A stretch of DNA of 64,000 bases from Candidatus Latescibacterota bacterium (lineage in GTDB: Bacteria > Latescibacterota > UBA2968): positions 320,001-384,000 of the forward strand of contig OZ220741.1 of NCBI GenBank assembly GCA_965116885.1, given 5' to 3'. Numbering within the stretch: the first letter of the stretch is position 1; every line of letters begins with the position of its first letter. Shown one piece after another: positions 3,404-39,598 of this stretch. The translations under genes were made by a program, and so were the position numbers. Under the pieces are notes generated by a model. It searched no databases. It saw only the letters and a program-made list of their open reading frames with translations, and was not told where the DNA came from.

Positions 3404-3481
3404 CCAGGCGATCGACCCTTTGAATATTTGTTCTAACGCTCCCCTCCGGTCATTTCCGGATATTCGCCAGTTGCGTCAGAT
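3401..3481 (-). ncRNA. ZMP/ZTP (pfl) riboswitch
   Basis: TCTGACGCAACTGGCGAA..CCGG..CCGGAGGGGAGCGTTAGA linker GGTCGATCGCCTGGGC matches the pfl motif with the TGGCG/CGCC pseudoknot. Lies directly upstream of purH. Confidence 0.9.
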
Positions 3482-3496
3482 ACTATTATTAGAACC

Positions 3497-4805: not shown

Positions 4806-5924
4806 TCAAACCGCCTGACTTTGTAATCCCAAAGTCAATATGTTTATCGCAGCATTGAGGTCTCTGTCTGCTGTATAGCCACACTTCTTGCAATGATGCA
4901 CACGATCAGAGAGTGCTTTCTTTTCGCGGTGTCCACAAGAAGAACAATCTTGTGAGGTGTGTTTAGGATCAACGGCCTTGAATCCAATACCAGCTTCTTC
5001 CGCTTTGTATTCGAGACAATGCCGAAACAGTGACCACGCTGCATCTGAGATGCTTTTTGATAAACGACGATCCTTTTGCATCTTTTTAGCGTCTAACTTT
5101 TCTGTTGCAACAAAGCCATACTTATTGACGATTTTGCGAGCTTCTTGATGCACAAAATTATGTCTTCTATTACGGATACGCTCATGCACTCTGGCAACAG
5201 TCTTACGCGCTTTCTCACGTTTCTTTGGCGACGCTTTTTTCACTTTATCCCACTTGCGCTGTGCTTTGGCAAGCACCTTTTCCTCTTTTTGAAAAAAGCG
5301 AGGATTAGCTATCTTTGTCTCGTCAGAAAACATAGCAAAATTATCAAGCCCCACGTCAATGCCAACGGCGGGATCAGCGTCTGTTTTATCAGGCGCGTCG
5401 CCTATATCACAAGAGATAGTAGCAAACCACTTGCCCGTCGCCGTGCGCCTGAGCGTGCAAGACTTAGGCATACCCTCAAGTGGTCTGTGCTGGACAACCC
5501 GAATACAGCCTATTTTGCCCAATCGCAAGCCCTTCCCGTCCAATCGGCATCCATTGAAAAACTGAGGATATGTCATAGAGTCAAACCGATTCTGCCCCTT
5601 GTATCTGGGAAAGCCTGCTTTCTCGCCCGTCTTTGACCTCTCTTTGAGACGGCGAAAAAATCCCTTGAATGCCCAATCTACTCTCTGGCATACTTGCTGA
5701 AGAACTTGAGAGTGTATGTTAGCAAAAGATTGACGCTGTTGTTTCAGCATTGGCAATGTCGCTTGTTGCTCATAGCGCGACAAACTTTCTTTGTTCTTTT
5801 CCCATGCTTGGACTCTTGCACAGACAAGTTGGTTATACAGCAAGCGACATTCTTCAATGTGCGCCGTCAGGATTTTCTCCTGTTTTTTTGTCGGGCGCAG
5901 TCTGTATTTTAAGGACTTAAGCAT
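4806..5924 (-). CDS. tnpB: RNA-guided endonuclease TnpB
   Basis: KYRLRPT N-terminus, GFPRYK, RuvC D (GIDVGL), E (ATEKL), D (DRDLNAAINI), Zn ribbon CSSC..CKKC. Confidence 0.95.
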   Translation of the reverse strand: MLKSLKYRLRPTKKQEKILTAHIEECRLLYNQLVCARVQAWEKNKESLSRYEQQATLPMLKQQRQSFANIHSQVLQQVCQRVDWAFKGFFRRLKERSKTGEKAGFPRYKGQNRFDSMTYPQFFNGCRLDGKGLRLGKIGCIRVVQHRPLEGMPKSCTLRRTATGKWFATISCDIGDAPDKTDADPAVGIDVGLDNFAMFSDETKIANPRFFQKEEKVLAKAQRKWDKVKKASPKKREKARKTVARVHERIRNRRHNFVHQEARKIVNKYGFVATEKLDAKKMQKDRRLSKSISDAAWSLFRHCLEYKAEEAGIGFKAVDPKHTSQDCSSCGHREKKALSDRVHHCKKCGYTADRDLNAAINILTLGLQSQAV

Positions 5925-8468: not shown

Positions 8469-10046
8469 CTATTCGCCTATAGACACGTCCATCATCTGAT
8501 ACACCAAATCCATACGCAAGCTGTTACGCACCCAATCGGCCAAGCGGTCATACTCCCGGTCTCGCACCACATCAACGCCGATAGGCAAAGTGACACGCTT
8601 GAGACGGGCCAACGCCTGAAGAATCGCGCGGCGCACGCCAGCGTTGTGAAACAAACCGTGAATATAAGTTCCCATGACGCGCCCCGTGGAATCCATAGCA
8701 CCATCCAAAACAGTTTGCGTCACCTGAGCGTTTACCCGGTCTATCGCAAAAATAGGCACAACGCCTTTTCCAACCGTGTGTCCCATATGAATCTCGTAGC
8801 CAGTGACCAACTCGTCGGCTACCCCAGACAACAGCCCATCGACCGCCACAGCCTCTGCCCGCACCCTGGCCTGCACGCGATGCGTCTCCTTGGAATTGGC
8901 AAAAGTAGTCACCAGGGGCAGCAGACCGAGGCCATTGACAGTATCCACAGAAGATTCAACGCCGTGTGGGTCACGGATCGTTTCGCCCAGCATCTGGTAG
9001 CCACCACAAATACCAATCACAGCCGAACCGTTCTCAAAAGCCTCAACTACGGCCCGAGACAATCCCTGTTGTGCCATCCAGAGCAGGTCGGGAATGGTCG
9101 TTTTGCTACCCGGCAAAATAACCAGATCGGGCCTACCCAAGTGGTCTCCGCACGGCACATAGCGCAAAGAAATACCCGGTTCGTGGGCCAGTGGGTCAAA
9201 ATCGTCAAAATTGGAGATATGGGGCAGTTGCACCACAGCGACATCGAGAACAGGGGCAATCTCCGAGGCAGGCCGTACCACATCCAAGGCGACAGAATCT
9301 TCCTCGGGAATGTGAATATCGCAAAAATGGGGCACAACGCCAACCACGGGTTTGCCGGTATAGCCCTCCAACCACGTCAAGCCATCGTTTAGTAAGGAAA
9401 TATCGCCGCGAAACTTGTTGATAATCAAGCCCTTGACCGCCTCGCGTTCCGCCTTATCCAGCAATTGGAGTGTACCAACCAACGAGGCAAACACGCCGCC
9501 CCGGTCAATATCGCCGCAAAGAAGCACTGGTGCATCGGCATAGAGGGCAACGCGCATATTGACAATTTCCGTGGCCTTCAGATTAATTTCAGCGGGGCTG
9601 CCCGCCCCTTCTATCACCACCGCGTCGTACTGCCGGCGCAGCGTGTCCAACGACTGTGTCACAGACTCCCACAACGTAGATTTGAGATCGTAGTAATCCC
9701 GCGCACGGGCGCGGGTAATCGGGTGCCCCATCATCACGACCTGGGCACAGTTGTCGGCCTCCGGTTTGAGCAGGACGGGATTCATTTCCACGCGAGCTTC
9801 GACACCAGCAGCCTCGGCCTGAACGACTTGGGCGCGCCCAATCTCGCCGCCATCGGCCGTAATATAGGAATTGTTGGACATATTCTGCGCCTTAAAGGGC
9901 GCCACCCGCAGACCATCTTGGCGCAAAATGCGACACAGTGCCGCCACCAGCACGCTCTTGCCCACATGAGAAGCCGTTCCTTGCACCATCAAAACGCGGC
10001 CCAGTGGCGACAACGCACGGGATAAACCAGTATCCAAATCGCTCAT
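8469..10046 (-). CDS. cobQ: Cobyric acid synthase
   Basis: MVQGTASHVGKS, PFKAQNMSNNS, EGAGSPAEINL, DIDRGGVFA, ISNFDDFDPL, GICGGYQMLG, GYEIHMG, GTYIHGLF. Confidence 0.96.
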   Translation of the reverse strand: MSDLDTGLSRALSPLGRVLMVQGTASHVGKSVLVAALCRILRQDGLRVAPFKAQNMSNNSYITADGGEIGRAQVVQAEAAGVEARVEMNPVLLKPEADNCAQVVMMGHPITRARARDYYDLKSTLWESVTQSLDTLRRQYDAVVIEGAGSPAEINLKATEIVNMRVALYADAPVLLCGDIDRGGVFASLVGTLQLLDKAEREAVKGLIINKFRGDISLLNDGLTWLEGYTGKPVVGVVPHFCDIHIPEEDSVALDVVRPASEIAPVLDVAVVQLPHISNFDDFDPLAHEPGISLRYVPCGDHLGRPDLVILPGSKTTIPDLLWMAQQGLSRAVVEAFENGSAVIGICGGYQMLGETIRDPHGVESSVDTVNGLGLLPLVTTFANSKETHRVQARVRAEAVAVDGLLSGVADELVTGYEIHMGHTVGKGVVPIFAIDRVNAQVTQTVLDGAMDSTGRVMGTYIHGLFHNAGVRRAILQALARLKRVTLPIGVDVVRDREYDRLADWVRNSLRMDLVYQMMDVSIGE

Positions 10047-10167
10047 TAAAATCCAAATAAAAATTTTGTGGTTGCTTTTTCGCGCTATATTCAGCACAAA
10101 AGATAGGACTTGCACCTGAAAAGAGCAAGCCCCAGATCAGTGGATGAACGATTATCGCATCTGCGAA

Positions 10168-12369
10168 TCAAAAAAACGACAGCTTATAATGCACTTCAAT
10201 ACTCCGCCCCGTTTCGGGCATCACAGATCGAATGCGCGAAAGATGGTTGCGGTATTCCGTATCCAAAAGATTGTCCAAAGAGAGAATAATACTATGGCGG
10301 GTATGGTCGGTGTTAATGTCGCGCTGGGCATACACACCGAAAACAGCATAGCCATCCGTAGGATCTTCGAATATATCCACACGCTCCTGTCCTGCGACAA
10401 ATTCCGCAGTCCCGCCAACCGTAAGAAAGGGATGCTCATAGGTCGTACTGCCCACAAACTTGAGCGGTGGCATCTCGGGCAGAGGCAAATGCTCATCCCT
10501 ATTCTCGCCGCGCACATAACTACCGTTCAATTCCAGACTCAGACGCGTATTCAAACGCCACCCCAGATGCATCTCCAAACCCAAAAATCGCGCGGCAACA
10601 CCATCGGCAGCGTAAATCGGCAGCAGTTGGGCAAAATTGATCTCTCCGGTATTGCGCGGGGCAATATAGGTATCAAACTCGTTCCAATATCCACTCAAAA
10701 CAAAATCGATACCCGGTTGCAAATAATGAAAAAAGACCTCAAAGCCCAGACTCGTCTCGGCCTCGAGATCGATATTACCCACCTCAAAAGTGTAAGCAGC
10801 CAGATGCGGTCCATCGTTATAAAGCTCTTCAATCGTAGGCTCCCGCTGGGATCGGCTGAAATTGAAACCGCCAGTTAGCTGATCGGTAATGTTCACAAGC
10901 GGACTAATTGCCGCAGACCAGGCGTGAAAGGTGCGATCTACATCGAGATCTGCAATACTCTTTGTTCTTGGGCGCGGATCAAAGTCGGCATACGTATAAC
11001 GCGCAGAAGCCTGAAATTCGATATGCCGATAGCTAAACTCGTGATAAAAACCAAGGTAAGCATTTAGCTCTCGCGTGGGCGGCGTAAAAACAAACGCCCC
11101 CAATTTGAGATGGTGGTGACCAAAGCCGAAGGCGAAAACGGTATTTCGCGTCTGGCCCTGTGTGTTCATAAACAATTTGAGATCACCGCTATAGTCGTGG
11201 AACAAAAACTCGGCCCCAATATTGCCACTTGATTCATACTCGAAGTGGTGGTAGTGAGTCCTGGTAAAATCCATCTCTACGCTACTGAACACCTGGTGAT
11301 CAAAATGGAAGGCCGCCCTGCCATCAAATATCCGGCGATCAATATCCAGATCCACGCCATTGGGATGCCCGCCAATAAATCCACCGGGAATGCCATATTG
11401 GGTATCGAACTGGTCAAAAGAAGCACCAATATATCCCCGGTCAGTCGGATATGACAGACCGAGCGTATGCGTGCGCGTGTCAATAGGCGTGTTGGCGAGC
11501 CTGCCAATGGGGGTTTGCACATCCCGGGTATTGCGGTACGTAGTCTCGGCATACAGCGCGAGTGGCCCCACGGGCACGGTAATACCAGCGGCAGAGAGAT
11601 ACCCGCGATTGACCGTCTCGCCATAAACACCAACACTGCCAGAAACGCGCTGCGGATAGTCTTCCGGAATCTTCTTTTTCACGACATTGATAACCCCGCC
11701 AATAGCCGATGCCGTGTGAAGCAAGGTGCGTGGACCCCGGATAATTTCGAGGCGTTCTGAATTAAAAGGCTCGAGCGTAACCGCGTGATCAGCAGAAGTC
11801 GCGGATAAATCCCGAGCCTCGATACCATCTATATTGATCTGTACGCGGTCGCCACTCAGGCCACGTATAACCGGACGAGCAGGTGCAGGCCCCATGCTGC
11901 GGATAGCGACGCCGATTTCGTTTTTTATCGTCTCGGCAAGCGTGAGACTGTACTTCTTCTGAAGCTCATCTCCCGAAAGCACGCCCGTCGCTTCGTGCAA
12001 TGCTTCAAAATGAGTTTCCGCACTTTTCTCTACCACGTCAATGGTATCAATCTGGATTTCCCGGGCAACCATTTCGATGTACAGAATGGGCAATTTCTCA
12101 CCTGAGACCCTTACTTCCCGACGCGCTATCCGATAGCCGAGACGAAAAAAAGACAGGCGATGAACGCCCTGCGACAGACGCAAGACAAAACGGCCCCGAT
12201 CATCGGTTGTCGTGCTCGTTGCGCCATCATCGAGTTTGATATCGACATTGTCAATTGCGCGTTGGGTCTTGTGATCAAAAACATATCCCTCGAGCAAACG
12301 CGTCTCATCCGACGCGCTGACCGCAAAAAAAAAGAACACAACAAACAGAATAGAAGCCGTGAATTTCAA
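10168..12369 (-). CDS. TonB-dependent receptor, ZnuD-like (copy A)
   Basis: Signal peptide, carboxypeptidase-regulatory-like N domain, plug with GPAPARPVIRGLSGDRV..DLSATSADHAV, C-terminal YRNHLS..PETGRS..F. Confidence 0.92.
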   Translation of the reverse strand: MKFTASILFVVFFFFAVSASDETRLLEGYVFDHKTQRAIDNVDIKLDDGATSTTTDDRGRFVLRLSQGVHRLSFFRLGYRIARREVRVSGEKLPILYIEMVAREIQIDTIDVVEKSAETHFEALHEATGVLSGDELQKKYSLTLAETIKNEIGVAIRSMGPAPARPVIRGLSGDRVQINIDGIEARDLSATSADHAVTLEPFNSERLEIIRGPRTLLHTASAIGGVINVVKKKIPEDYPQRVSGSVGVYGETVNRGYLSAAGITVPVGPLALYAETTYRNTRDVQTPIGRLANTPIDTRTHTLGLSYPTDRGYIGASFDQFDTQYGIPGGFIGGHPNGVDLDIDRRIFDGRAAFHFDHQVFSSVEMDFTRTHYHHFEYESSGNIGAEFLFHDYSGDLKLFMNTQGQTRNTVFAFGFGHHHLKLGAFVFTPPTRELNAYLGFYHEFSYRHIEFQASARYTYADFDPRPRTKSIADLDVDRTFHAWSAAISPLVNITDQLTGGFNFSRSQREPTIEELYNDGPHLAAYTFEVGNIDLEAETSLGFEVFFHYLQPGIDFVLSGYWNEFDTYIAPRNTGEINFAQLLPIYAADGVAARFLGLEMHLGWRLNTRLSLELNGSYVRGENRDEHLPLPEMPPLKFVGSTTYEHPFLTVGGTAEFVAGQERVDIFEDPTDGYAVFGVYAQRDINTDHTRHSIILSLDNLLDTEYRNHLSRIRSVMPETGRSIEVHYKLSFF

Positions 12370-12392
12370 AATGAATCTCCAACAAACAAAAA

Positions 12393-12427
12393 GCCCTCAC
12401 CCGGTCTTTCAAAAACAGGGTGAGGGC
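12393..12427 (-). terminator. Terminator-like hairpin between lipoprotein and receptor (copy A)
   Basis: GCCCTCACCC..GGGTGAGGGC followed by TTTTTGTTTGTT on the minus strand. Confidence 0.7.
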
Positions 12428-12437
12428 AAAGCAATTA

Positions 12438-12926
12438 CTACTCTCCGACATGCACGGGAATGGGAATGGTGCGAAAATCCACATGATCGTCGTGCGTGAC
12501 CTGGAGCTCAATCGTAGTCTCGCCTACCTTGAGACCCCGCAGGTGAAAATCAAACTTGCCAACATCGTCGGCATCCTGAACAACTTCCAAAACCGTGGGA
12601 TCGGCAATCGCCCAGGTAAATTTGAAATCCGGATCATCTGGCGGGTCAATCTCGTCGCCATGGTCATCCAGAAAACGAATACTCCAGTGCGACGTTTCCT
12701 CATTGAGGGGTGCGTCGAGATGATCTTTCCGACCACCGCTGGCATCAATCTGCCCTTGAAAATAGCGGAAAAAACGATTGCCCGAATCTATGATAACCAG
12801 ACCCTCGGGTTCGAAATGCTCTTCCTGGTGAGACATGGGATCGTCACTACCACAACCGATCACAAAGAAAGTTAGAACTGCCACAGCGGCAAAGGTGCGT
12901 TGAAACGAGTTTCTTCTAAAAAACAT
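12438..12926 (-). CDS. His/Asp-rich lipoprotein (copy A)
   Basis: AGGAG RBS before MFFRRN, lipobox VIGC, SHQEEH..DH..THDDHVDF. Confidence 0.8.
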   Translation of the reverse strand: MFFRRNSFQRTFAAVAVLTFFVIGCGSDDPMSHQEEHFEPEGLVIIDSGNRFFRYFQGQIDASGGRKDHLDAPLNEETSHWSIRFLDDHGDEIDPPDDPDFKFTWAIADPTVLEVVQDADDVGKFDFHLRGLKVGETTIELQVTHDDHVDFRTIPIPVHVGE

Positions 12927-13047
12927 GATAGTCTCCTGAATAAGCCCGCACGGGCAGAGAACACAGAGAGAGGTCCTCTTATGCCCGCACAAAAAAGCAC
13001 AAAGATATAAAAAATAATGCAAACTTTAGTATTAAGATATTCAGTAT

Positions 13048-13326
13048 TCAGAAACCTACTGGGGGGGATCGGCCCTGAGGCGAAAGGAAAAACTGGTGGG
13101 ATAAAAATGTGAGATGCAGCAGAATAGCAAAACAACAGGCGTATAATACACCAAAAACGACTATGGCACTGATAAGACCACTAAAGCTATAAACCCAATG
13201 GCAAACGAGGCAATGGATGTCATGTTCAACATGCTCAACCACATGCCCAAAGGCAAGGGCAAACGCGCCGATGAACAATATGGCGATCAGCCTTTTAACG
13301 AGCGGGGATCTGAGGTAGAGATTCAT
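13048..13326 (-). CDS. DUF2946-like small membrane leader protein with C-terminal RSPP (copy A)
   Basis: Hydrophobic helix, HVVEHVEHDIHCLVCH, second hydrophobic segment, ends SPQGRSPPVGF. ORF preserved in both copies. Confidence 0.75.
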   Translation of the reverse strand: MNLYLRSPLVKRLIAILFIGAFALAFGHVVEHVEHDIHCLVCHWVYSFSGLISAIVVFGVLYACCFAILLHLTFLSHQFFLSPQGRSPPVGF

Positions 13327-13415
13327 TATATAGGGTCATCTCGAACAAACATTTTCTGCTACAAGTGGCGTTGATCTTTTTTTGCCTCTTAAGTTCAAAG
13401 ATAGATATTGACCTC

Positions 13416-13454
13416 AAAAAGAGCAAGCCCCAGATCAGTCTGCTGGTCTGGGGC
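13416..13454 (-). terminator. Terminator after receptor copy B
   Basis: GCCCCAGACCAG-caga-CTGATCTGGGGC then TTGCTCTTTTT. Confidence 0.65.
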
Positions 13455-13486
13455 ATAGTGAAATGTCAGCATATCTGACCGCTAAA

Positions 13487-15688
13487 TTAAAAGAAAAACA
13501 TCTTGTAATGCACTTTAATGCTCCGCCCCGTTTCGGGCATCACGGATCGAATGCGCGAGAGATGGTTGCGGTATTCCGTATCCAAAAGGTTGTCCAAAGA
13601 AAGAATAATACTATGGCGGGTATGATTGGTGTTAATATCGCGCTGTGCATACACACCAAAAACAGCATAGCCATCCGTAGAATCTTCGAATATATCCACA
13701 CGCTCCTGTCCTGCGACAAATTCCGCAGTCCCACCAACCGTAAGAAAGGGATGCTCATAGGTCGTACTGCCCACAAACTTGAGCGGTGGCATCTCGGGCA
13801 AGGGCAAATGCTCATCCCTATTCTCGCCGCGCACATAACTACCGTTCAATTCCAGACTCAGACGCGTATTCAAACGCCATCCCAGATGCATCTCCAGACC
13901 CAAAAATCGCGCGGCAACACCATCGGCAGCGTAAATCGGCAGCAGTTGGGCAAAATTGATCTCTCCGGTATTGCGCGGAGCAATATAGGTATCGAACTCG
14001 TTCCAATATCCGCTCAAAACAAAATCGAAACCCGGTTGCAGATAGTGAAAAAAGACCTCGAAGCCCAGACTCGTTTCGGCCTCGAGATCGATATTACCCA
14101 CCTCAAAAGTGTAAGCAGCCAGATGCGGTCCATCGTTATAAAGCTCTTCAATCGTAGGCTCCCGCTGGGATCGGCTGAAATTGAAACCGCCAGTTAGCTG
14201 ATCGGTAATGTTCACAAGCGGACTAATTGCCGCAGACCAGGCGTGAAAGGTGCGACCTACACGGAGAGCCGCCAGACTCCTTGTCGTCGGACGCGGATCA
14301 AAGTCGGCATACGTATAACGCGCAGCAGCCTGAAATTCGATATCGCGATAAATAAATTCGTGGTAGAGACCTAATGAAGCGCATTGCTCTCGCGTGGGCG
14401 GCGTAAAAACAAACCCCCCCAATTTGAGGTTATGATGGCCAAAGCCCAGGGACAGAACGGTATTTCGCGTCTGACCCTGTGTGTTCATAAGCAACTTGAG
14501 ATCTCCGCGGTAGTCGTGGAACAAAAACTCGGACCCAATACTGCCACTGGATTCGTACTCAAAGTGGTGATAGAAGGTCCTGGTAAAATCCATTTCTACA
14601 CTACTGAACACCTGGTGATCAAAATGGAAGGCCGCCCTGCCATCAAATATCCGGCGATCAATATCCAGATCCACGCCATTGGGATGCCCGCCAATAAATC
14701 CGCCTGGAATGCCATATTGGGTATCGAACTGGTCAAAAGAAGCACCAATATATCCCCGGTCAGTCGGATATGACAGACCGAGCGTATGCGTGCGCGTATC
14801 AATAGGGGTATTGACAAGCCTGCCAATGGGGGTTTGCACATCCCGGGTATTGCGGTACGTAGTCTCGGCATACAGCGCGAGTGGCCCCACGGGCACGGTA
14901 ATACCAGCGGCAGAGAGATACCCGCGATTAACTGTCTCTCCATAAGCACCAACACTGCCAGAAACGCGCTGCGGATGGTCTTCCGGTATCTTCTGTTTCA
15001 CCACATTGATAACCCCGCCAATAGCCGATGCCGTGTGAAGCAGTATGCGCGGACCCCGGATAATTTCGAGGCGTTCTGAATTAAAAGGCTCAAGCGTAAC
15101 CGCGTGATCAGCAGAAGTCGCGGATAAATCCCGAGTCTCCATACCATCTATATTGATCTGCACGCGGTCACCACTCAGGCCGCGTATAACTGGTCGAGCG
15201 GGTGCGGGTCCCATGCTGCGGATAGCGACACCGATTTCGTTTTTCATCGTCTCTGCAAGCGTGAGACTATACTTCTTCTGAAGTTCATCTCCAGAAAGCA
15301 CGCCAGTCGCTTCGTACAATTCTTCAAAGCGCGTCTCTGCACTTTGGGCGACCACCTCAATGGTATCCGCAACAATTTCCCGGGCAACCATTTCGACGTA
15401 CAGAATGGGCAATTTCTCATCCGAAACCCTTATTTCCCGACTCACCAATCCATACCCGAGACGAAAAAAAGACAGGCGATGAACGCCCTCCGATAGACGC
15501 AAGACAAAACGGCCCCGATCATCGGTTGTCGTGCTCGTTGCGCCATCATCGAGTATGATATCGACATTGTCAATTGTGCGTTGAGTTTTGCGATCAAAAA
15601 CATATCCCTCGAGCAAACGCGTCTCATCCGACGCGTTGATCGCGGAAAAGCAGACCACAAAAACGAGAATGAAGGCTGTAAATCTCAA
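13487..15688 (-). CDS. TonB-dependent receptor, ZnuD-like (copy B)
   Basis: Paralog of 10168-12369. TTG start after AGGAGG gives the same length. Confidence 0.92.
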   Translation of the reverse strand: MRFTAFILVFVVCFSAINASDETRLLEGYVFDRKTQRTIDNVDIILDDGATSTTTDDRGRFVLRLSEGVHRLSFFRLGYGLVSREIRVSDEKLPILYVEMVAREIVADTIEVVAQSAETRFEELYEATGVLSGDELQKKYSLTLAETMKNEIGVAIRSMGPAPARPVIRGLSGDRVQINIDGMETRDLSATSADHAVTLEPFNSERLEIIRGPRILLHTASAIGGVINVVKQKIPEDHPQRVSGSVGAYGETVNRGYLSAAGITVPVGPLALYAETTYRNTRDVQTPIGRLVNTPIDTRTHTLGLSYPTDRGYIGASFDQFDTQYGIPGGFIGGHPNGVDLDIDRRIFDGRAAFHFDHQVFSSVEMDFTRTFYHHFEYESSGSIGSEFLFHDYRGDLKLLMNTQGQTRNTVLSLGFGHHNLKLGGFVFTPPTREQCASLGLYHEFIYRDIEFQAAARYTYADFDPRPTTRSLAALRVGRTFHAWSAAISPLVNITDQLTGGFNFSRSQREPTIEELYNDGPHLAAYTFEVGNIDLEAETSLGFEVFFHYLQPGFDFVLSGYWNEFDTYIAPRNTGEINFAQLLPIYAADGVAARFLGLEMHLGWRLNTRLSLELNGSYVRGENRDEHLPLPEMPPLKFVGSTTYEHPFLTVGGTAEFVAGQERVDIFEDSTDGYAVFGVYAQRDINTNHTRHSIILSLDNLLDTEYRNHLSRIRSVMPETGRSIKVHYKMFFF

Positions 15689-15707
15689 AACATACCTCCT
15701 ATAAAAA

Positions 15708-15742
15708 ACCCTCACCCTGAGTCTGAAAGACCGGATGAGGGC
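15708..15742 (-). terminator. Terminator-like hairpin between lipoprotein and receptor (copy B)
   Basis: GCCCTCATCC..GGGTGAGGGT followed by TTTTTAT. Confidence 0.7.
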
Positions 15743-15752
15743 AAAGCAATTA

Positions 15753-16241
15753 CTACTCTCCGACATGCACGGGAATGGGAATGGTGCGAAAATCTACATG
15801 ATCGTCGTGCGTGACCTGGAGCTCAATCGTAGTCTCGCCTACCTTGAGACCCCGCAGATGAAAATCAAACTTGCCAACATCGTCGGCATCCTGAACAACT
15901 TCCAAAACCGTAGGATCGGCAATCGCCCAGGTAAATTTGAAATCCGGATCATCTGGCGGGTCAATCTCGTCGCCATGGTCATCCAGAAAACGGATGCTCC
16001 AGTGCGACGTTTCCTCATTGAGGGGAGCGTCGAGATGATCTTTCCGACCACCGCTGGCATCAATCTGCCCTTGAAAATAGCGAAAAAAACGATTGCCCGA
16101 ATCTATGATAACCAGACCCTCGGGTTCGAAATGCTCTTCCTGGTGAGACATGGGATCGTCACTACCACAACCGATCACAAAGAAAGTTAGAACTGCCACA
16201 GCAGCAAAGGTGCGTTGAAACGAGTTTCTTGCAAAAAACAT
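15753..16241 (-). CDS. His/Asp-rich lipoprotein (copy B)
   Basis: Identical to copy A except one signal-peptide residue (R/A). Confidence 0.8.
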   Translation of the reverse strand: MFFARNSFQRTFAAVAVLTFFVIGCGSDDPMSHQEEHFEPEGLVIIDSGNRFFRYFQGQIDASGGRKDHLDAPLNEETSHWSIRFLDDHGDEIDPPDDPDFKFTWAIADPTVLEVVQDADDVGKFDFHLRGLKVGETTIELQVTHDDHVDFRTIPIPVHVGE

Positions 16242-16362
16242 GATAGTCTCCTGAATAAGCCCGCACGGGCAGAGAACACAGAGAGAGGTCCTCTTATGCC
16301 CGCACAAAAAGGCACAAAGATATAAAAAATAATGCAAACTTTAGTATTAAGATATTCAGTAT

Positions 16363-16650
16363 TCAGGAGACTACTGGAGGGGATCGGCTCTGAGGTGAAA
16401 GGGAAAACTGGTGGGATAAAAATGTGGGATGCGGCAGAGCGAAAAAATAACAGGCGTATAATGCACCAAAAACGACTATGACACTGATAAGACCACAAAA
16501 GCTATAAACCCAATGGCAAACGAAGCAATGGGTGTCATGTTCACCGTGTTCATCATGTTCAACCGCATGCCCAAAGGCAAGGGCAAACGCGCCGACGAGC
16601 AATATGACGATCAGCGTCTTAACGAGCGGGTGTCTGGTGTAGAGATTCAT
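16363..16650 (-). CDS. DUF2946-like small membrane leader protein with C-terminal RSPP (copy B)
   Basis: HAVEHDEHGEHDTHCFVCH, ends SPQSRSPPVVS. Confidence 0.75.
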   Translation of the reverse strand: MNLYTRHPLVKTLIVILLVGAFALAFGHAVEHDEHGEHDTHCFVCHWVYSFCGLISVIVVFGALYACYFFALPHPTFLSHQFSLSPQSRSPPVVS

Positions 16651-16703
16651 TTTTAATACTATATGGGACTACCTCGAGCAAAAGTAGTTGTCTATCAGTG
16701 CGT

Positions 16704-17168
16704 CTATTTGTCCCCTGCGGAATGCGCTCGCAATTGTCTAATCGATTGCAAGCGCAAAAGCAATTTTTCGAGATTTGATTTTAGCTCTTTTTGGATCTCG
16801 ACCATTTGCTCGGGCGTCACCTGTAGATTCTCTTTTTCGCCATGGTGTTCATGGCCGTGATCATGACCGTGATCATGGGCCTCTTCCGAGTCATCTCCCG
16901 GCACTTCAACCACGTTTTTTTCCCACAATTCAAAGTCTTTTTCGATAACCTGAAGACTATCGCGTATTTCCACAGCATGATGTGAAAGTGACTTCAAGCT
17001 ATCCAGTTGATTCTCAAATTGCTTTTCAATTTCCATCATCGCCTTGTGAATATCCGTCGCCTGTTGCAAGTGGTGTGCATCTTCTTTATTTTCTCCCTGG
17101 CAAGAAACAAAGAACGCAAACACTATAACACTTATCACTTTGAGTCGCATTGGATTTTGTCTCTCCAT
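16704..17168 (-). CDS. His-rich helical lipoprotein
   Basis: Lipobox FVSC, VEVPG..HDHGHDHGHEHH. Confidence 0.75.
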   Translation of the reverse strand: MERQNPMRLKVISVIVFAFFVSCQGENKEDAHHLQQATDIHKAMMEIEKQFENQLDSLKSLSHHAVEIRDSLQVIEKDFELWEKNVVEVPGDDSEEAHDHGHDHGHEHHGEKENLQVTPEQMVEIQKELKSNLEKLLLRLQSIRQLRAHSAGDK

Positions 17169-17196
17169 ATTTTACGTCTCCTTTCGCGTGTTTATC

Positions 17197-17595
17197 CTAT
17201 TTTTCACAATCATCTTTGCGACATAAATGATGATTCCGAATATGGCCTGAGATCAAAAATCCCGACCCAAAAACGGTCCCCACCCGTTCCCCTATCTCCC
17301 CAAAAAGATCATGGCCAACCATAACCATTACGACGAGAAGGGACAGCCCGAGGATACCGAAACCAATGACAAATTGATCTTTATGACGGCGACACCCCAA
17401 TCCAAGAGCAAGAATGCTGGTAGGCAGAATCAGCCACATCAAAAGCCCATGAAAATGTTCACCGCCAACAAATGTAGTTGCCAACAACGGAAACGCAATA
17501 AGTGCAACAGGCAATGTCAAACAATGGATCGCACACATTGTTGAAAGAACAATGGCGATTTTGTCACCTGCGGTTTGATAGCTCAAACGCGCCAT
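17197..17595 (-). CDS. MerC domain-containing membrane protein
   Basis: DKIAIVLSTMCAIHCLTLP, GCRRHK, GHIRNHHLC, four TM segments. Confidence 0.88.
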   Translation of the reverse strand: MARLSYQTAGDKIAIVLSTMCAIHCLTLPVALIAFPLLATTFVGGEHFHGLLMWLILPTSILALGLGCRRHKDQFVIGFGILGLSLLVVMVMVGHDLFGEIGERVGTVFGSGFLISGHIRNHHLCRKDDCEK

Positions 17596-17619
17596 TTATT
17601 ATCTCCTTTTCACTTATAC

Positions 17620-18153
17620 TCAATATGTATCGCCAGGATTGCTTTTCATATCACGCGTCTCCACCACCTCGGCTTTACTGATGCGAAAAAAGAGTTCGGA
17701 AGGATCTTTTTGCAACAGTTCCAGGCGACCTGTAATAGTAACGGGATAATAAGTAAAATCAATCGGCTTACTCGGACGAATATCCACCAAAGACTCAGGC
17801 CCACCCCCGCCTGCACAAAACGAACATCCCCCAAGTGAATACGGAGTCAAAACAAAACGCGTCTGTTTTTTTTGAGCCGATAGCGGAATCATAAACCCGA
17901 CAAGCTCGACGTACTTGCCATTCATTTTATTTAACGTATCGGAAAAAATGGGCACAAAGTTCGGCGCATAGGGATCATAACTCACCGTCGCAAGGGTTTC
18001 CCAAAGCGAACCCTTCATCATCTGGGGCAGTGGAGACGCCTGAAGCTCTGGGCGATGGTCTGTTGACGAGGGCGGCGTCTCACTGTCAGTATCTATTCTC
18101 AAAACCACAGCAAATAACAAAATAAACATTACCGTGCGTTGTATATACATCAC
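17620..18153 (-). CDS. DUF3299 domain protein (ZrgD-like)
   Basis: LNKMNGKYVELVGFMIPL..FVL..GCSFC..GPES..V..GRLEL. Confidence 0.75.
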   Translation of the reverse strand: MMYIQRTVMFILLFAVVLRIDTDSETPPSSTDHRPELQASPLPQMMKGSLWETLATVSYDPYAPNFVPIFSDTLNKMNGKYVELVGFMIPLSAQKKQTRFVLTPYSLGGCSFCAGGGGPESLVDIRPSKPIDFTYYPVTITGRLELLQKDPSELFFRISKAEVVETRDMKSNPGDTY

Positions 18154-19418
18154 GACACCTCCACCAGTGTTTGTGCAACATCTGTCCGATAGACCTGAAG
18201 CGCGGGTATAAGAGCCGATACACTACCCAACACAAGTGCCAGACCAATGAGCCAGAATTCATCGGATAAAATAATCCATCCCGTCAAATTTATATGCTGT
18301 GCCTCGCGCACCCACGCGCCAATCACCTCAGTGCTGGCATGCCCAAGCACAAATCCCAATCCCGTACCCATAAATGTAAGCAAAATCCCCTCCAAAAGCA
18401 CCTGAACAAAAAGTTTACCGCGACTTGCCCCCAGAGCGCGCATCATAGCCAGATCGTATCGCCGATCTTTCATCGCATTATAAAGCGCCACAAAAATGCT
18501 CAACGCCGCTGCAAACACCAGAACCCCACCAAAAACCCGCACCACCTCCAACCCAACACCGAGCAATGCAAAAAGGCGCGTTGTCTCAAATGCGGGGGAC
18601 GCAGCCTGAAATTTGGTCTCTTTGTTCACATACCGCGGAAATGACACGGCTGCAATAGGTGAACGATAGCGAATCAACAGACCCGTAACTTCGCGCTCGG
18701 CATCGGCTTCACTGTCCATCGGCAAACCGAGAACATCGCGCGTGCGATCCTCATCGACCTGGCTCTCTATATGGTGGTCCTCCCCCTCTTCTTCATGCGG
18801 TTCGTGAACCAGCCAGACTGTTTCCACAGCAGTCAGTAACAGACGGTCGATAATCGAACCCGTTGGTTGCAACACACCCACCACGCGAAACGGTTGCGAC
18901 TCGTGTTGTTCAGAAGCTGTTTCTGCGGTCAACCCATGCGAACTAATAACCTCATCACCCAGCACAAGACCTGTCTCTCTGGCAACCTGTGCGCCTACAA
19001 CCACCTGGTATGGGGCATCCCAAAAGGTACCATCAACCAATTCCGCCCGGTAGTGTTTGGCGTATTCGGAGGTCGTACCCACAATGCGATAACCCCGATA
19101 ATTATCCCCCAATGCCAGAGGGATCGCCTGTGCAACCGCTCTGTTTTTTGCCAGTTTACGCGCCTCTAAAAGCGGTATATTACCCGTTGGCACGTCAACG
19201 TGAAAAACGCTGGATAAAATCAATTGCAGGGGACTGCCCTTAGCACCCACAACAACATCAATATTTTCAACATTGCGGTACAAATTCTCTTCAAATTGCT
19301 CGCCAAAAAGCAACAAAACAACGACAATACCCGTTCCAAGCCCCAACAATATCATATTGAGCAATGTATTCAACTTGCGCCGATAAATATAGGCCAGACT
19401 AATTTTGAAGAGATTCAT
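18150..19418 (-). CDS. FtsX/MacB-type ABC permease (zinc-associated ZrgC-like)
   Basis: DVVVGAKGSPLQLILSSVFH..PTGNI, AIPLALGDNYRGYRIVGT, RRYDLAMMRALGASR, His-rich loop. Confidence 0.9.
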   Translation of the reverse strand: MNLFKISLAYIYRRKLNTLLNMILLGLGTGIVVVLLLFGEQFEENLYRNVENIDVVVGAKGSPLQLILSSVFHVDVPTGNIPLLEARKLAKNRAVAQAIPLALGDNYRGYRIVGTTSEYAKHYRAELVDGTFWDAPYQVVVGAQVARETGLVLGDEVISSHGLTAETASEQHESQPFRVVGVLQPTGSIIDRLLLTAVETVWLVHEPHEEEGEDHHIESQVDEDRTRDVLGLPMDSEADAEREVTGLLIRYRSPIAAVSFPRYVNKETKFQAASPAFETTRLFALLGVGLEVVRVFGGVLVFAAALSIFVALYNAMKDRRYDLAMMRALGASRGKLFVQVLLEGILLTFMGTGLGFVLGHASTEVIGAWVREAQHINLTGWIILSDEFWLIGLALVLGSVSALIPALQVYRTDVAQTLVEVS

Positions 19419-20068
19419 GCGGGCAATTCCACCTGTTCATCGAGCGCAATACAATGGTTAAAACTGTCGGTAATGCGATGATCATGTGAAGCCACCACCA
19501 GAGTTGCCTCAACCTCTCGCGCAGATGACGTAAGCAAATCCAACACCTGCTTGCTGCGCGTATCATCCAATCCAGATGTCGGTTCATCGGCCAACAGCAA
19601 TTGGGGACGATTAACAACAGCCCGGGCGATTGCCACGCGCTGTTGTTGACCAAAACTCAGTTCCGATGGATAAGCGTGTTCGCGGCCTGCCAGACCGAGA
19701 GTCGCAAGCACCTGTTCGGCACGCGCCCTATCCTGCTGTACACCGGCCATATAATGCGCCATGAGCAAATTTTCCAGCACCGTAAAAACCGGGAACAGGT
19801 GAAATTGTTGAAAAACAATGCCAATATGTTGCCCGCGAAATCGGTCGCGAGCGGTCTCTGTCAGTGCGTAAATATCCTGTTTGGCAATATGCACACTGCC
19901 CTGTGAGGGCTTTAACAAACCAGCTATAATATGCAAAAGCGTCGTCTTCCCGCTTCCAGATGGCCCGTGCAACAGCCATTTTTCATCGGGCTGAGCCTCA
20001 ATATATTCTGGCAAGTCCAATACAAGACGACTGCCATAAACATGCCCAACGTGTTTAAGTACAAACAT
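19415..20068 (-). CDS. ABC transporter ATP-binding protein
   Basis: GPSGSGKTT, LSFGQQQRVAIARA, LLADEPT. Confidence 0.93.
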   Translation of the reverse strand: MFVLKHVGHVYGSRLVLDLPEYIEAQPDEKWLLHGPSGSGKTTLLHIIAGLLKPSQGSVHIAKQDIYALTETARDRFRGQHIGIVFQQFHLFPVFTVLENLLMAHYMAGVQQDRARAEQVLATLGLAGREHAYPSELSFGQQQRVAIARAVVNRPQLLLADEPTSGLDDTRSKQVLDLLTSSAREVEATLVVASHDHRITDSFNHCIALDEQVELPA

Positions 20069-20142
20069 GAGATAGTACTCAAAAAATGCGATATGTGACT
20101 TCAAAATGTGCCGTCAAAATCGAACGGATGAGGCAATTTCGG

Positions 20143-21363
20143 TCATGCTGACGCCTCGGCCATGCGAAGCTCCGGAAACGGATTCCGGAACCCTGCCCAG
20201 GTCTTGCTGTTAGCGGAGGCGAGGCGCTCGTCGAGCAGACACGCGTCGAGGCGGGCGCGCATCGACGCCTCGTGCATCTGCTGGCCGATGAAGACGAGCT
20301 GTTGCGCGCGATCGCCGAAGCGAGGATGCCAGTCCGGCTGCTGGTCAGGTCCCTGACCCTCGGGATGCCCCCAGTGTTCGCGAGGCACGGCCGCCCACCA
20401 CATCCCAACGGGATTCACGTTGATGACGCCGCCGGCTTGAGACCACTCGTAGAGGATCCGATGGTCAGCGGCGACCCAGAAGAAGCCCTTCGAGCGGAGC
20501 ACGCCGCTCCAGTTCTCGGCGTCGTGCAGAAGCGCCCACAGCTTCTCGGCGTCGAAGGGCTGCGATGTCCGATAGGTAAAGCTCGAAATCCCGTACTCCT
20601 CGGTCTCCGGCGTGTGCTCACCCTGAAGCTCTCGAATCCAGCCGGCGGAGTGCGCCGCCTTCTCGTAGTCGAACAGGCCCGTGTCGAGCACGCATTCGAG
20701 CGGGACCTGTCCGCGCGTCGCCATGAGGACCTTCGCGCCGGGGTTGAACGCTTTCACGATGGCCTCGACCTCGAGAGCCTGATCGTTGTCCACGAGATCG
20801 AGCTTGTTCAGCACGATGACGTCGGCAAACTCGATCTGGTCAATGAGCAGGTCGGTCACCGTCCGGTGATCTTCTTCGCCCAGCGACTCACCGCGGTCCT
20901 GGAGTGCCTCGGCGGCGTTGTAGTCCCGCAGGAAGCTCGCCGCGTCCACGACTGTGACCATCGTGTCGAGGCGCGAAACCTGCCCCAGGCTCACACCGTT
21001 CTCGTCCTCGAAGGTGAAGGTCTGCGCGACGGGAATGGGCTCCGAGATCCCCGTGGACTCGATGAGCAGGTAGTCGAAGCGGCCCTCCTGCGCGAGCCGT
21101 GAGACCTCGGCGAGCAGGTCGTCTCGCAGCGTGCAACAGATGCAGCCGTTCGACATCTCGACCAGCTTCTCCTCGGTCCGCGAGAGCTCCGCACCGCCGC
21201 GCTCAACGAGCGTCGCGTCGATGTTGACCTCGCTCATATCGTTGACGATGACCGCGACGCGCATGCCCTCGCGGTTGTTGAGCACGTTGTTGAGAAGAGT
21301 GGTCTTGCCTGCGCCGAGAAAGCCGGACAGGACAGTAACGGGAAGTCTCTCTGATACGGGCAC
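20143..21363 (-). CDS. COG0523 G3E metallochaperone GTPase (YciC/ZigA-like)
   Basis: [69 protein letters not shown] start after GAGG. Confidence 0.93.
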
Positions 21364-21443
21364 TTTAGTTTCCTCATTCAAAGGGTAATGACATACAACA
21401 GCGAATCGTTCAAACCGGTGGCGATTCAGTTTGCGGTCGTGCT

Positions 21444-22490
21444 TCACCTGTTGCCCACTCGCCAAACCGTCGCGCCACCCTGAGCGTCGAGCGCAGCAAG
21501 CGCGCGTCCATCTGGTCGCCAGTACAAGGCGCTGACAACATCTGCCACAAGCGCAATTCCTATCGGATCGCCTTGTCCATCGCGCCTGAGTGACCACACA
21601 ACTACGCCGCCATCCCGAGCCCCCGAGGCCAAACGCATCCCGCGGCGAGCGAAGGCGAGCGTTGTAACAGTTTGAACATGAAGTTCTAGAACGCCGGGCC
21701 GCGTGCCTTCGGGACCACTTCCCTGGAAGCTCCAGACCGTCACCGCCTCGCCTCCGCCGGTGGCCAAAAGGGTGCCAGTGTCATCAAAGGCCAAGGCCGA
21801 CGGCTTGGCAGGATATCCTGACATCATCGAGTCCTGCTCCGTGGAGCGACGCCAGAAATGCACCGAGTTGTCCTGGCTGCCGCAGGCCACGATATCCCCG
21901 TCCGGACTCAGTACCATCGACACCAAGGAGCCCATCCACTCCAGCTTCTGGCGAAGCTCCCCAGTAGATGCGTCGAAGAACGTCACCCGACCGTAACAGG
22001 CAGTCGCCAGCTCCCTTGCACTGGACCAGGCGATCGCGCTAACGGTGCTGGGGTGATCATCAGATCGCCAGACTTCTCCGCCGTCCGCACCATACGCGCG
22101 AACCTGCCGGGAGCAGGAGGCCGCCAGCCATTGGCCGTCCGGCGACCACGCCACGTTCTCCACCCAATCGCTGCCGACGTCGATAGCCTGTTTTACTTGA
22201 CCTTCGGCGACATCCCAGATAAGGACTCGTCCGTCCTGGCCAGCCGTAGCGAACGCGGTTCCGCTTGGGTGGATCGCCATCGCGAGTACGCCGCCATCAT
22301 GAGCCCCCTGCCGGGCCCAGGCGCTTGCACCGGACTTGCCGTCAAACGCGTAGATGCCACCCGCGGCGTCACTGACCACCAGCACCTCACCGCGGAGGGC
22401 CCAGCCCCCGGCGATGGCGTAGTCGCCGACCGCCGCAGACCAGCCCCGGCGAAGAACACCCTTTGAGCTGACGACATTCAAATCAGACAT
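21444..22490 (-). CDS. WD40-repeat protein
   Basis: Repeated [30 protein letters not shown] blades. Confidence 0.9.
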
Positions 22491-23824
22491 GCCTCGAATC
22501 CCTGCCGCATGCTCTGCTCATCGAGGTTGCGGCCGATGAAGACGAGTTGATTGCGCCGGGGCGAGTCTCCCCATGGACGCTCCGGCTGGCCGTCAAAGAG
22601 CATGTGAACCCCCTGGAAGACGAAACGAGACGACTCACCCGCGAGGCTGATGAAGCCCTTCATTCGGAAGATGTCCACCCCGCGCTCACGGAGCAGTTCG
22701 CCAAGCCAGACGTCGAGCCTTTCGGGATCTACGTCGCCGTCCCTCTCGATTGCGATCGAGCCCACCTCGTCGTCGTGCTCGTGCTGTGCGACCCAGGTGC
22801 GCTCGACCTCTTGCTTGATTGTCGCTCCTTCCGCGTTCGTTAGTTGGAGATCGAACTCCTCCGCGGTGTGCTGGGCGTAGAGGCCAACCCGCACCTGCGT
22901 ATCGACCTCCAGGAAGAACGACTTGCGCCCTGAGGAATCGAGCTGGAGGTTCACATGCTTTCCGACAGAAATCTCTTCCCCCGGGCGAATGAACTCCGCA
23001 GGTTCGGCGTACCGCCGCACACTCCACTCCGCACCCTCACGGAGGGCAACGTCATCCGTGCCCTGGTCGGACACGACAACGAGCGACATCGTCGGATCAG
23101 GTCCATCGGCAAGGCTGAGTTCGTAGCGGCCGATATCGAGTGAATAGACGCCAGTCCATTCGAACGGATACTCCGGCTCGAGGAAGGCGGGACGACGTTC
23201 GAGCACCTGGTCCAGGTCGAAGGCACCGAGGTTGAGTACCGTGTCCAGGGAGACGTTCGCCTGCTCGCTACGCACGACTTGCGCCATTCGGTTCATGTCC
23301 TGGATCCGAGCCTCGATCCTGTCGAGCACCTCGCCATCGACGAGGTCCGTCTTGTTAAGAACAAGGACGTCTGCGAACGCGATCTGTTCCGTGCTCTCGT
23401 CGCTTCGTCCGAGTTGCTGCTCGATGTGGGCTGCGTCAACGAGCGTGACGATCCCGTCAAGCGCGAACTCCGCGCGAATCTCGTCGTCCATGAAAAAGGT
23501 TTGAGCGACCGGACCGGGATCGGCGAGCCCCGTGGTCTCCACCAACACATAGTCGAACTTGTCTCGGCGCTTCATGAGGTTGCCGAGCACGCGAATCAGG
23601 TCTCCGCGCACCGTGCAGCAGATGCAGCCGTTCGACATTTCGAAGATCTCCTCGTCAGCATTGATGACGAGCGCATGATCGATGCCGACCTCCCCGTATT
23701 CGTTCTCGATCACGGCAATGCGCTTGCCGTGCTCCTCACTCAAGATCCGGTTGAGCAGGGTCGTCTTGCCAGAGCCGAGGAAGCCGGTGAGGATGGAAAC
23801 AGGTATTTTTCGCGGTGTGTTCAT
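22478..23824 (-). CDS. COG0523/CobW-family GTPase with central insertion
   Basis: LTGFLGSGKTT, ENEYGEVGID, NGCICCTVRGD, ETTGLADP, FRMKG, VFQGVH, LVFIGRNL. Confidence 0.93.
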   Translation of the reverse strand: MNTPRKIPVSILTGFLGSGKTTLLNRILSEEHGKRIAVIENEYGEVGIDHALVINADEEIFEMSNGCICCTVRGDLIRVLGNLMKRRDKFDYVLVETTGLADPGPVAQTFFMDDEIRAEFALDGIVTLVDAAHIEQQLGRSDESTEQIAFADVLVLNKTDLVDGEVLDRIEARIQDMNRMAQVVRSEQANVSLDTVLNLGAFDLDQVLERRPAFLEPEYPFEWTGVYSLDIGRYELSLADGPDPTMSLVVVSDQGTDDVALREGAEWSVRRYAEPAEFIRPGEEISVGKHVNLQLDSSGRKSFFLEVDTQVRVGLYAQHTAEEFDLQLTNAEGATIKQEVERTWVAQHEHDDEVGSIAIERDGDVDPERLDVWLGELLRERGVDIFRMKGFISLAGESSRFVFQGVHMLFDGQPERPWGDSPRRNQLVFIGRNLDEQSMRQGFEACLI

Positions 23825-23883
23825 CTATTTCTCCTGGAGCAGAGGGTGGTGATGTGCCGATCAACATACGTTCTATTTTTCCT

Positions 23884-26705: not shown

Positions 26706-26711
26706 GAAGAA

Positions 26712-39577: not shown

Positions 39578-39598
39578 GAGTACAAATTTAATTTTTTA

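Follow-up and report, generated by a model that had tools for sequence, protein, structure and literature searches.

What is the role of two small open reading frames (ORFs), each lying ahead of a lipoprotein gene and a TonB-dependent receptor gene, in the genome of Candidatus Latescibacterota bacterium? The DNA analysed, called the window hereafter, is a stretch of 64,000 nucleotides (nt) of assembly GCA_965116885.1 (contig OZ220741.1, positions 320,001-384,000). Its source genome is a single 5.56-Mb contig that carries exactly two copies of these ORFs, here named leaders A and B. We consider it fairly probable that each of them is a cis-acting arrest-peptide switch of the CruR/CutF (DUF2946-like) kind, in which a ribosome stalled at a C-terminal R-S-P-P (RSPP) motif would expose the ribosome-binding site of the downstream gene and metal would modulate the stall. 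The elements of the two leaders are the following (positions are those of the window).

16363..16650, minus strand: leader B, 95 amino acids (aa), with a hydrophobic N-terminus, His cluster, HCxxCH, second hydrophobic segment, RSPP, VVS and stop codon
16513..16569, minus strand: His/Cys segment of leader B proposed as metal site, running from H28 to H46 with C42 and C45 inside it
16375..16386, minus strand: codons CGA TCC CCT CCA for RSPP in leader B, where arrest is proposed to occur, Pro91 occupying the P site and Pro92 the A site
13048..13326, minus strand: leader A, 92 aa, with the layout of leader B and a shorter His cluster, followed by RSPP, VGF and stop codon
13198..13245, minus strand: His/Cys segment of leader A proposed as metal site, running from H28 to H43 with C39 and C42 inside it
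13060..13071, minus strand: RSPP codons of leader A, the position of the motif

A preliminary description of this DNA had reported two ORFs of ~92-95 aa with this layout; both were retrieved at these positions on the minus strand, and their hydropathy and motifs agree with it. The leaders share 70 of 93 residues (75%) and are separated by a single 3-residue gap located within the His cluster. In both of them a basic N-terminus is followed by a hydrophobic segment, G-H, H-x-x-[DE]-H repeats, H-C-x-x-C-H-W and a second hydrophobic segment, while the C-terminal part reads F-L-S-H-Q-F-x-L-S-P-Q-[SG]-R-S-P-P, three residues, stop. The pattern of the putative metal site is H-x-x-[DE]-H-x-[DE]-H-x-x-H-C-x-x-C-H. 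The two hydrophobic segments correspond to 15-residue Kyte-Doolittle windows above 1.6 starting at residues 7-17 and ~43-63. The N-terminal one extends approximately over residues 7-31 and has K/R residues ahead of it, as defined by hydropathy. The distance from CxxC to RSPP is 43 residues in both leaders. A six-frame search of the genome for ORFs of 60-160 aa starting with ATG identified eight, from a total of 11,773, with R[SAG]PP at most six residues from the stop codon. Leaders A and B are the only ones among these eight that also have a strongly hydrophobic N-terminus and a CxxC. The leader pattern is not due to chance.

The leader family was found with a family profile in 60 of the 151 Latescibacterota genomes sampled; by taxonomic rank, it is present in 19/19 genomes of the genus, 25/29 of the family and 18/19 of the sister family. 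Homologues recovered were 17 close ones, 18 representatives (exhaustive profile search, E <= 0.001) and 29 proteins (word-based profile search), and none in these three sets carries a Pfam annotation. In relatives with 25-35% identity, nothing but CxxC and R[SAG]PP comes close to being invariant: C42 and C45 are invariant in alignments A1, A2 and A4, and H28, R89, P91 and P92 are the only other residues conserved in at least 90% of sequences. Among close relatives the invariant residues are H28, H35, H38, H41, C42 and C45. R[SAG]PP is found in 80 of the 82 distinct sequences of the pooled family set (49 RSPP, 30 RAPP, 1 RGPP; the motif is missing in P0027 and P0041). It starts 42-46 residues past CxxC in 79 of these 80 (mode 43) and is followed by 2-3 residues up to the C-terminus in 72. 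The conservation of the two motifs in homologues, which the preliminary description had made a condition of its reading, is thus observed for the invariant CxxC and for RSPP as a member of R[SAG]PP. Selection was estimated from 25 intact leader copies of 17 genomes (300 pairs; medians for pairs with a synonymous rate, dS, above 0.15). The median ratio of non-synonymous to synonymous rates (dN/dS) is 0.37 for the leader as a whole; it falls to 0.07 over the His/CxxC segment and amounts to 0.47 and 0.52 for the two hydrophobic segments and to 0.41 for the tail. Synonymous variation is present in the R, S and P codons of RSPP. These sequence comparisons argue for purifying selection on the leader peptide, both across the 25 copies and in distant relatives.

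The competence of RSPP for translational arrest is suggested by its recovery in random arrest screens in E. coli and by its place among the most under-represented tetrapeptides in proteomes (PMC12992588). The genome under study follows the same trend. In its ORFs of at least 200 aa, RSPP occurs 6 times against 18 expected (ratio 0.33), RAPP 8 against 27 (0.30) and RGPP once against 25 (0.04), as compared to ratios of 1.11 for ASPP (24 against 22) and 0.94 for KSPP. R[SAG]PP is otherwise avoided in this genome. Small secretory ORFs ending in RAPP or RGPP have been catalogued across Gram-negative phyla upstream of TonB receptors as well as of YcnI, PCuAC and PepSY genes (PMC12992588). This survey extracted RAPP and RGPP only, so RSPP leaders such as A and B would be missed. 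Outside the window, the genome carries a 149-aa ORF (G000:C1:445818-446267, minus strand) with a hydrophobic N-terminus, GPPGPPG repeats and RRGPP at its C-terminal end, which is possibly another arrest leader, of the RGPP type.

The second line of evidence is found in the RNA. The leader stop codon is separated by 121 nt from the ATG of the lipoprotein gene in both units, matching the ~120 nt reported earlier, and the end of the leader can pair with the Shine-Dalgarno (SD) sequence across this spacer. The strands involved are:

16360..16374, minus strand: anti-SD strand B (GTAGTCTCCTGAATA), formed by the last three codons, the stop codon and 3 nt
16243..16257, minus strand: SD strand B (TATTCAGGAGACTAT), which stops 1 nt short of the ATG of lipoprotein gene B
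13045..13059, minus strand: anti-SD strand A (GTAGGTTTCTGAATA), with weaker pairing due to one G-A mismatch and G-U pairs
12928..12942, minus strand: SD strand A, ahead of lipoprotein gene A

In unit B the 15 nt past the second Pro codon (GUA GUC UCC UGA AUA) are complementary to UAUUCAGGAGACUAU, which holds the AGGAG SD of the lipoprotein gene. The minimum free energy (MFE) fold of the unit contains this helix (-47.8 kcal/mol, z -2.8, matched by 1 of 200 shuffles). Among the leader copies, 23 stand ahead of a lipoprotein gene, and their duplexes have energies of -8.6 to -24.3 kcal/mol, with z <= -3 in 20 of them. When these copies are aligned (alignment A3), 94.7% of the cells are paired, against 38-51% if the partner is slid by 1-3 columns; the sequences are related and such counts therefore overstate independence. 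Compensatory changes are found in three pairs, the clearest case being L019, where the stop codon is UAA and the partner reads UUUAGGAG instead of UUCAGGAG. The C-to-U changes in the leader strand all preserve G-U pairs. The anti-SD/SD helix is the sole consensus structure in an unguided RNAalifold prediction, and it is kept though the spacer varies from 93 to 288 nt and is unalignable between deeper branches. The spacer of the units is T-rich (C 0.20, G 0.20, T 0.40) and has no obvious Rho site. Two variants of this region were noted. At L017:6280-6565 the spacer has grown to 288 nt by tandem CCTTTTGTG-type repeats and the helix is retained. In a RAPP-type metagenome relative (L037:1616-1683) a hairpin and a U-run lie just past the PP codons, an arrangement that might be a terminator-like variant of the same logic, in which the stall means ON.

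The proposed mechanism links these two lines. The His/Cys metal site of the nascent peptide would sit 43 residues before the R-S-P-P arrest core, approximately the length of the ribosome exit tunnel. A ribosome paused with Pro91 in the P site and Pro92 in the A site would cover the next 9-12 nt, which form the 5′ strand of the 15-bp helix with the lipoprotein SD and include the CUCC that pairs with GGAG. This assignment of sites and the footprint are geometric considerations by analogy with CruR, for which toeprinting showed the P site to be occupied by the third motif codon and the A site by the fourth (PMC12992588). The pause would free the ribosome-binding site, so that the lipoprotein gene could be translated, and it is assumed that the TonB receptor gene, which overlaps or adjoins it, would be translated in turn. 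Once the ribosome reached the stop codon and left, the helix would re-form. Metal bound to the emerging His/Cys segment would change the length of the pause. By comparison with CruR, and as would make sense for uptake genes, metal would relieve the pause and switch uptake off. Coupling of the leader to secretion is suggested by a single feature, its hydrophobic N-terminus. Motifs, spacing, conservation, gene order and the conserved helix can be read from the DNA; the stall, the metal response and its sign, the identity of the metal and action in cis are what we infer from them, and this is the first of the points that weigh against the proposal.

The others concern the motif, the helix and the leader protein. 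Conversion of RAPP to RSPP by an Ala-to-Ser change was only partially permissive in both peptides tested, ApdA and ApdP (PMC12992588). Copy A has a weak helix (-14.7 kcal/mol, z -1.5) that its MFE fold does not use, L007_1 (z -2.9) and L013 (z -1.4) being the other two exceptions among the 23 duplexes. Note that in the source genome the spacer and lipoprotein gene of unit A, but not leader A, were homogenised to the B type (see below), which may explain the mismatched helix. In the L012 and L014 copies there is no helix (-3.0 kcal/mol, z +0.5) and AGGAG is also absent. In the RAPP-type metagenome subgroup it is the A-P-P codons themselves (GCUCCUCC) that pair with GGAGG, in three of five folds. 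SD masking is at most suggestive in the distant L032, L035 and L037 (z -1.2 to -2.3), and a scan for it in 16 more distant high-GC loci was uninformative. A promoter inside the 121-nt spacer is possible. Comparison of leader A with leader B gives a dN/dS of 1.15 (dS 0.115, dN 0.133), so that this pair alone, from which selection on the peptide had been claimed, shows no purifying selection; the claim holds for the 25 copies and the distant relatives. The second hydrophobic segment is conserved although it was not described for CruR, and would suit a stable membrane protein with two helices.

Membership of the leaders in DUF2946 (PF11162, gathering threshold 23.7 bits) adds to these difficulties. 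Leaders A and B have no PF11162 match, even at E <= 10, and no match in the whole of Pfam and NCBIfam. The best same-genus orthologue scores 22.5 bits, just below the cut-off, and six of 20 distant relatives (alignment A2) reach sub-threshold scores of 15.4-20.8 bits. These matches always span profile positions 53/54-117, i.e., the half that goes from CxxC to RAPP and the end. PF11162 is the Pfam family that more A2 members match than any other and the top sub-threshold family, and one of the nearest ESM-Atlas clusters consists to 54% of PF11162 proteins. No over-threshold DUF2946 was found in the 151 sampled Latescibacterota genomes, no PF11162-annotated protein in the word-based profile search, and a tblastn search of plasmids with P0028 gave four matches at chance level (E 6-10). 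The published DUF2946 signature is a CxxC separated by 45 residues (+/- 1-2) from a RAPP found three residues before the end (PMC9426467). The present family shares with it the conserved CxxC, R[SAG]PP ~3 residues from the end, a 42-46-residue spacing and, behind the leader and a long spacer, metal-homeostasis genes in the same orientation. Judged from this motif geometry and sub-threshold similarity, the leaders are DUF2946-like, not demonstrated DUF2946 members; homology relies on the relatives' matches and the shared geometry, and convergence is therefore possible. The earlier assignment to a CruR/DUF2946-like cis leader is accordingly supported by motifs, spacing, SD pairing and the sub-threshold relationship, A and B themselves having no profile match. 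The preliminary description is thus confirmed as to what was observed, supported in the core of its interpretation and partly supported overall.

CruR (Bp2923) of Bordetella pertussis, a DUF2946/PF11162 protein (Roy et al. 2022, PMC9426467) that arrests translation in vitro (PMC12992588), resembles the leaders in being encoded by a short ORF upstream, in its invariant CxxC and in R-x-P-P three residues before the stop; its N-terminal export or membrane segment has a candidate counterpart in their hydrophobic N-terminus. The spacing of CxxC to the core is fixed in both (45 residues in CruR, 43 here) and a long spacer precedes the TonB-receptor unit (162 and 121 nt, respectively). The leaders differ from CruR (145 aa) by their length of 92-95 aa, RSPP in place of RAPP, a His cluster flanking CxxC, a second hydrophobic segment, a Pfam score below threshold and a zinc/cobalt rather than copper context. 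CruR is reported to act by Rho-dependent termination, whereas here the spacer is T-rich and the leader end pairs with the downstream SD. In the latter respect the leaders resemble CutF of Rhodobacter capsulatus, also DUF2946, whose translation governs, in cis, a stem-loop by which the SD of the following gene is masked (Ozturk et al. 2023, PMC9973294). CutF has in common with them a metal motif and a C-terminal Pro-rich motif. However, the motifs of CutF are CxxxC and a poly-Pro tail, and its target is a detoxifying multicopper oxidase switched ON by copper, whereas uptake genes are found downstream here, and the anti-SD strand is provided here by the leader's own last codons and stop codon. 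The authors of the CutF study argue that CutF-like proteins are not all copper-specific (PMC9973294). ApdA, ApdP and the catalogued RAPP/RGPP upstream ORFs share the C-terminal R-x-P-P core, the small membrane-targeted protein and the rarity of the motif in the proteome; ApdA/ApdP-type peptides have no sequence similarity to the leaders outside the core. Melting by a stalled ribosome of a helix that sequesters a downstream SD, as proposed here, is the principle of SecM-secA and MifM-yidC2, which sense translocation or insertion force, not metal, and are unrelated to the leaders in sequence.

The leaders might instead be stable, small inner-membrane proteins with two helices and a periplasmic His/Cys loop that act in trans as metal relay, sensor or uptake accessory. 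RSPP would then be a feature of the cytoplasmic tail and the helix would reflect ordinary translational coupling only. The two hydrophobic segments are kept in all relatives, and no part of the protein is more constrained than the His/Cys loop. Moreover, a ribosome terminating at the stop codon would open the helix as well and no stall is needed for it, so the helix speaks for coupling in cis and not for stalling. Against this stands the free drift of the sequence outside the motifs (25-35% identity), with a dN/dS of ~0.5 in the hydrophobic segments. The position of R[SAG]PP, fixed relative to CxxC (79/80) and to the stop codon (72/80), is needed by an arrest site rather than by a tail motif, and R[SAG]PP is avoided elsewhere in the genome. 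We regard a function in trans as unlikely, though deserving attention.

If the leaders are arrest-peptide switches, the genes under their control may reveal which metal is sensed. These genes, and a hairpin between the two units, are:

15753..16241, minus strand: lipoprotein B, 162 aa from the ATG at 16241, with lipobox ..VIGC, conserved EEHFE and HxxH, and a predicted Ig-like beta-sandwich
12438..12926, minus strand: lipoprotein A, 97-99% identical in nt to lipoprotein B
13487..15766, minus strand: TonB-dependent receptor B, with CarboxypepD_reg, Plug and barrel domains; top NCBIfam match ZnuD, 229 bits
10168..12369, minus strand: TonB-dependent receptor A, with the architecture of receptor B; ZnuD, 226 bits
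13416..13454, minus strand: terminator-like GC hairpin and T-run between receptor B and leader A, kept in the corresponding L004 and L007 copies

The order leader, lipoprotein, receptor is found in all 16 related loci, often twice, and a receptor lies downstream of the leader in 13 of 16 more distant Latescibacterota loci. Genes for ZnuA and an ABC-3 permease come behind the leader in L050, a member of the phylum, and in a metagenome subgroup (ZnuA was confirmed in L035; the metagenome context comes from the six-member subgroup A5 only). The structure model of the lipoprotein (pLDDT 70.6) matched generic Ig-like domains only (template modelling score 0.3-0.5), and no functional lead was obtained from these structure matches. 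At L012:6001-6276 and L014:6001-6276 the leader is found 96 nt ahead of an operon for an ATP-binding cassette (ABC) protein, FtsX and DUF3299 instead of the lipoprotein gene, indicating that it is a movable module. At L006:9305-9463 the second leader has degraded to a remnant of 41% identity and its lipoprotein and receptor genes are intact.

The receptors have ZnuD (NF038289) as best NCBIfam match, with scores (226 and 229 bits) well below the cut-off of 950, and are thus not ZnuD members. ZigA is encoded nearby at 20143-21597 (623.5 bits; NF038288 cut-off 600) and a second COG0523 GTPase is also present near the leaders. Upstream on the same strand are genes for a His-rich 154-aa protein, a MerC-family protein, DUF3299, an FtsX-type permease and an ABC ATPase. 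The MerC-family membrane protein (17197-17595, minus strand, 85.8 bits) lies between DUF3299 and the His-rich protein and is kept in 9 of the 16 related loci. Further support for zinc comes from distant leaders that head operons for a porin-like protein, ZnuA and the ABC-3 permease. The zinc-starvation setting put forward earlier stands as far as ZigA, the ZnuD-like receptors and ZnuA are concerned, but the same minus-strand string includes a cobalt/B12 side: CbiM, a CbiO-like ATPase, FecCD/ABC (BtuCD-like) genes, CobD, CbiZ and CobQ, with a cobalamin riboswitch (39417-39586, minus strand, 113.6 bits) at the head of this long gene string. In the deeper loci L011 and L017-L019 the unit follows ABC/FecCD genes and there is no ZigA block; a CbiZ fragment lies ahead in L011. 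No copper genes were found in the neighbourhood of the leaders. Since zinc and cobalt/B12 genes both surround the locus and no copper gene is near, the metal is left as Zn(II) or Co(II), which from gene content are the most likely candidates.

The case for copper is that CxxC is a classical Cu(I) site and that the characterised DUF2946 members respond to copper (PMC9426467, PMC9973294). The switch would then work as proposed and the receptors would import copper; they weakly match the TonB-copper model (60-62 bits against a cut-off of 472). The neighbourhood just described, with ZigA, the second COG0523 protein, the DUF3299/FtsX/ABC genes, CbiM and cobalamin genes, the better match of the receptors to ZnuD, the ZnuA/ABC-3 operons headed by distant leaders and the His-rich motif make copper rather improbable. 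A leader that monitors membrane insertion or secretion capacity in the manner of SecM, MifM or ApdA, instead of metal, has little to recommend it: an N-terminal targeting segment combined with a RAPP-like core at the C-terminus is the layout of a monitoring substrate (PMC10987492), yet sec or yidC genes are never found downstream and the invariant residues are metal ligands, and we consider it very improbable. Chance open frames in the non-coding spacer of a duplicated unit, to which the paralogue dN/dS of ~1 and the missing Pfam or NCBIfam match could have pointed, are in practice refuted by the intact copies in 17 genomes, the distribution of the family in the phylum, the orthologue dN/dS of 0.37 and, as weak evidence, RNA-library contigs that cover both leaders.

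Units A and B form a tandem duplication of ~3.3 kb whose identity is mosaic. Their lipoprotein genes and spacers (12927-13047 compared to 16242-16362) are 97-100% identical in DNA, as compared to only 83-89% in the leader region. A tree of 25 leader genes places leader B together with the upstream copies found in other genomes (support 93/91) and leader A with the second copy of L004 (support 98/97), so the duplication predates these species. Consistent differences separate the two leader types, one having DTHC[FL]VC and QSRSPP and the other DIHCLVC and QGRSPP. In other genomes the lipoprotein copies of the two units are only ~75-80% alike, whereas in the source genome the spacer and lipoprotein gene of unit A were homogenised to the B type and leader A kept its own type. 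This suggests a recent gene conversion between the units that ended at the leader stop codon. A more specific version of the arrest-switch model would hold that the leaders are nascent-chain Zn/Co sensors whose His-rich/CxxC segment tunes the RSPP stall, with paralogues kept different on purpose, in His load and helix strength, to respond to two metal levels. Lineages older than the species and gene conversion that homogenised the structural genes and spared the leaders can be invoked in its favour. We hold this version to be possible but doubtful.

Leader B starts 53 nt past the upstream His-rich gene and hence need not be the first gene of its transcript. RNA-library contigs of relatives (runs X15-X18, 90-99% likeness) extend over 16436-16913, from the end of the His-rich gene into leader B, and also cover spacer B (16207-16365) and leader A (13177-13302); they show neither strand, nor ends, nor a single transcript, and were not counted as evidence of co-transcription. 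A consensus scan of 9800-20400 gave 12 promoter-like sequences against 12.9 in shuffles and 14 terminator-like ones against 14.3. Rfam models matched nothing over 12800-17300 except for a chance-level microRNA, and no Zur/Fur-type palindrome was found beside the leaders. The sole Fur-family-like palindrome of the window (GAAATGATAATCAATTC, 26709-26725) is found ~380 nt upstream of CbiM in a divergent spacer, and an equally good match was present in 8 of 100 shuffles.

The general class to which these leaders would belong has already been described and the advance is in this sense incremental. What sets them apart from the known CruR and CutF leaders is the RSPP core, the His-rich site, the second hydrophobic segment and the anti-SD strand made of their own last codons. 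To our knowledge, gene regulation by a metal that acts through a nascent arrest peptide has so far been demonstrated for copper only (CruR, CutF). The leaders would thus be, if the model is correct, the first nascent-chain sensors of another metal. No published zinc- or cobalt-linked leader of this kind was found in full-text searches of the literature, though related clusters might be listed in the supplements of the CutF and CruR papers; the word zinc is absent from the main text of the CutF article (PMC9973294). The design would be extended to an uncultured phylum, to an RSPP core missed by RAPP/RGPP surveys, to sequences without Pfam annotation and to a zinc/cobalt-uptake setting. The concrete, mutable RNA helix and the fixed 43-residue ruler from sensor to stall make the model directly testable in vitro.

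Some further features of the window were noted. The block 20001-26000 has a G+C content of 61-63%, against 45-54% elsewhere in the region, and encodes ZigA, a WD40-type beta-propeller protein, the second COG0523 GTPase and the CbiO-like ATPase; acquisition of the whole block in one piece is possible. A gene homologous to the propeller one also occurs in L054, just upstream of a leader. An IS605 OrfB/TnpB-type gene (4806-5924, minus strand) with a Cas12f1-like TNB domain adjoins an AAA_21 ATPase gene. A ZMP/ZTP riboswitch (3395-3484, minus strand, 57.3 bits) lies just upstream of an AICARFT/IMPCHase gene (2177-3352).

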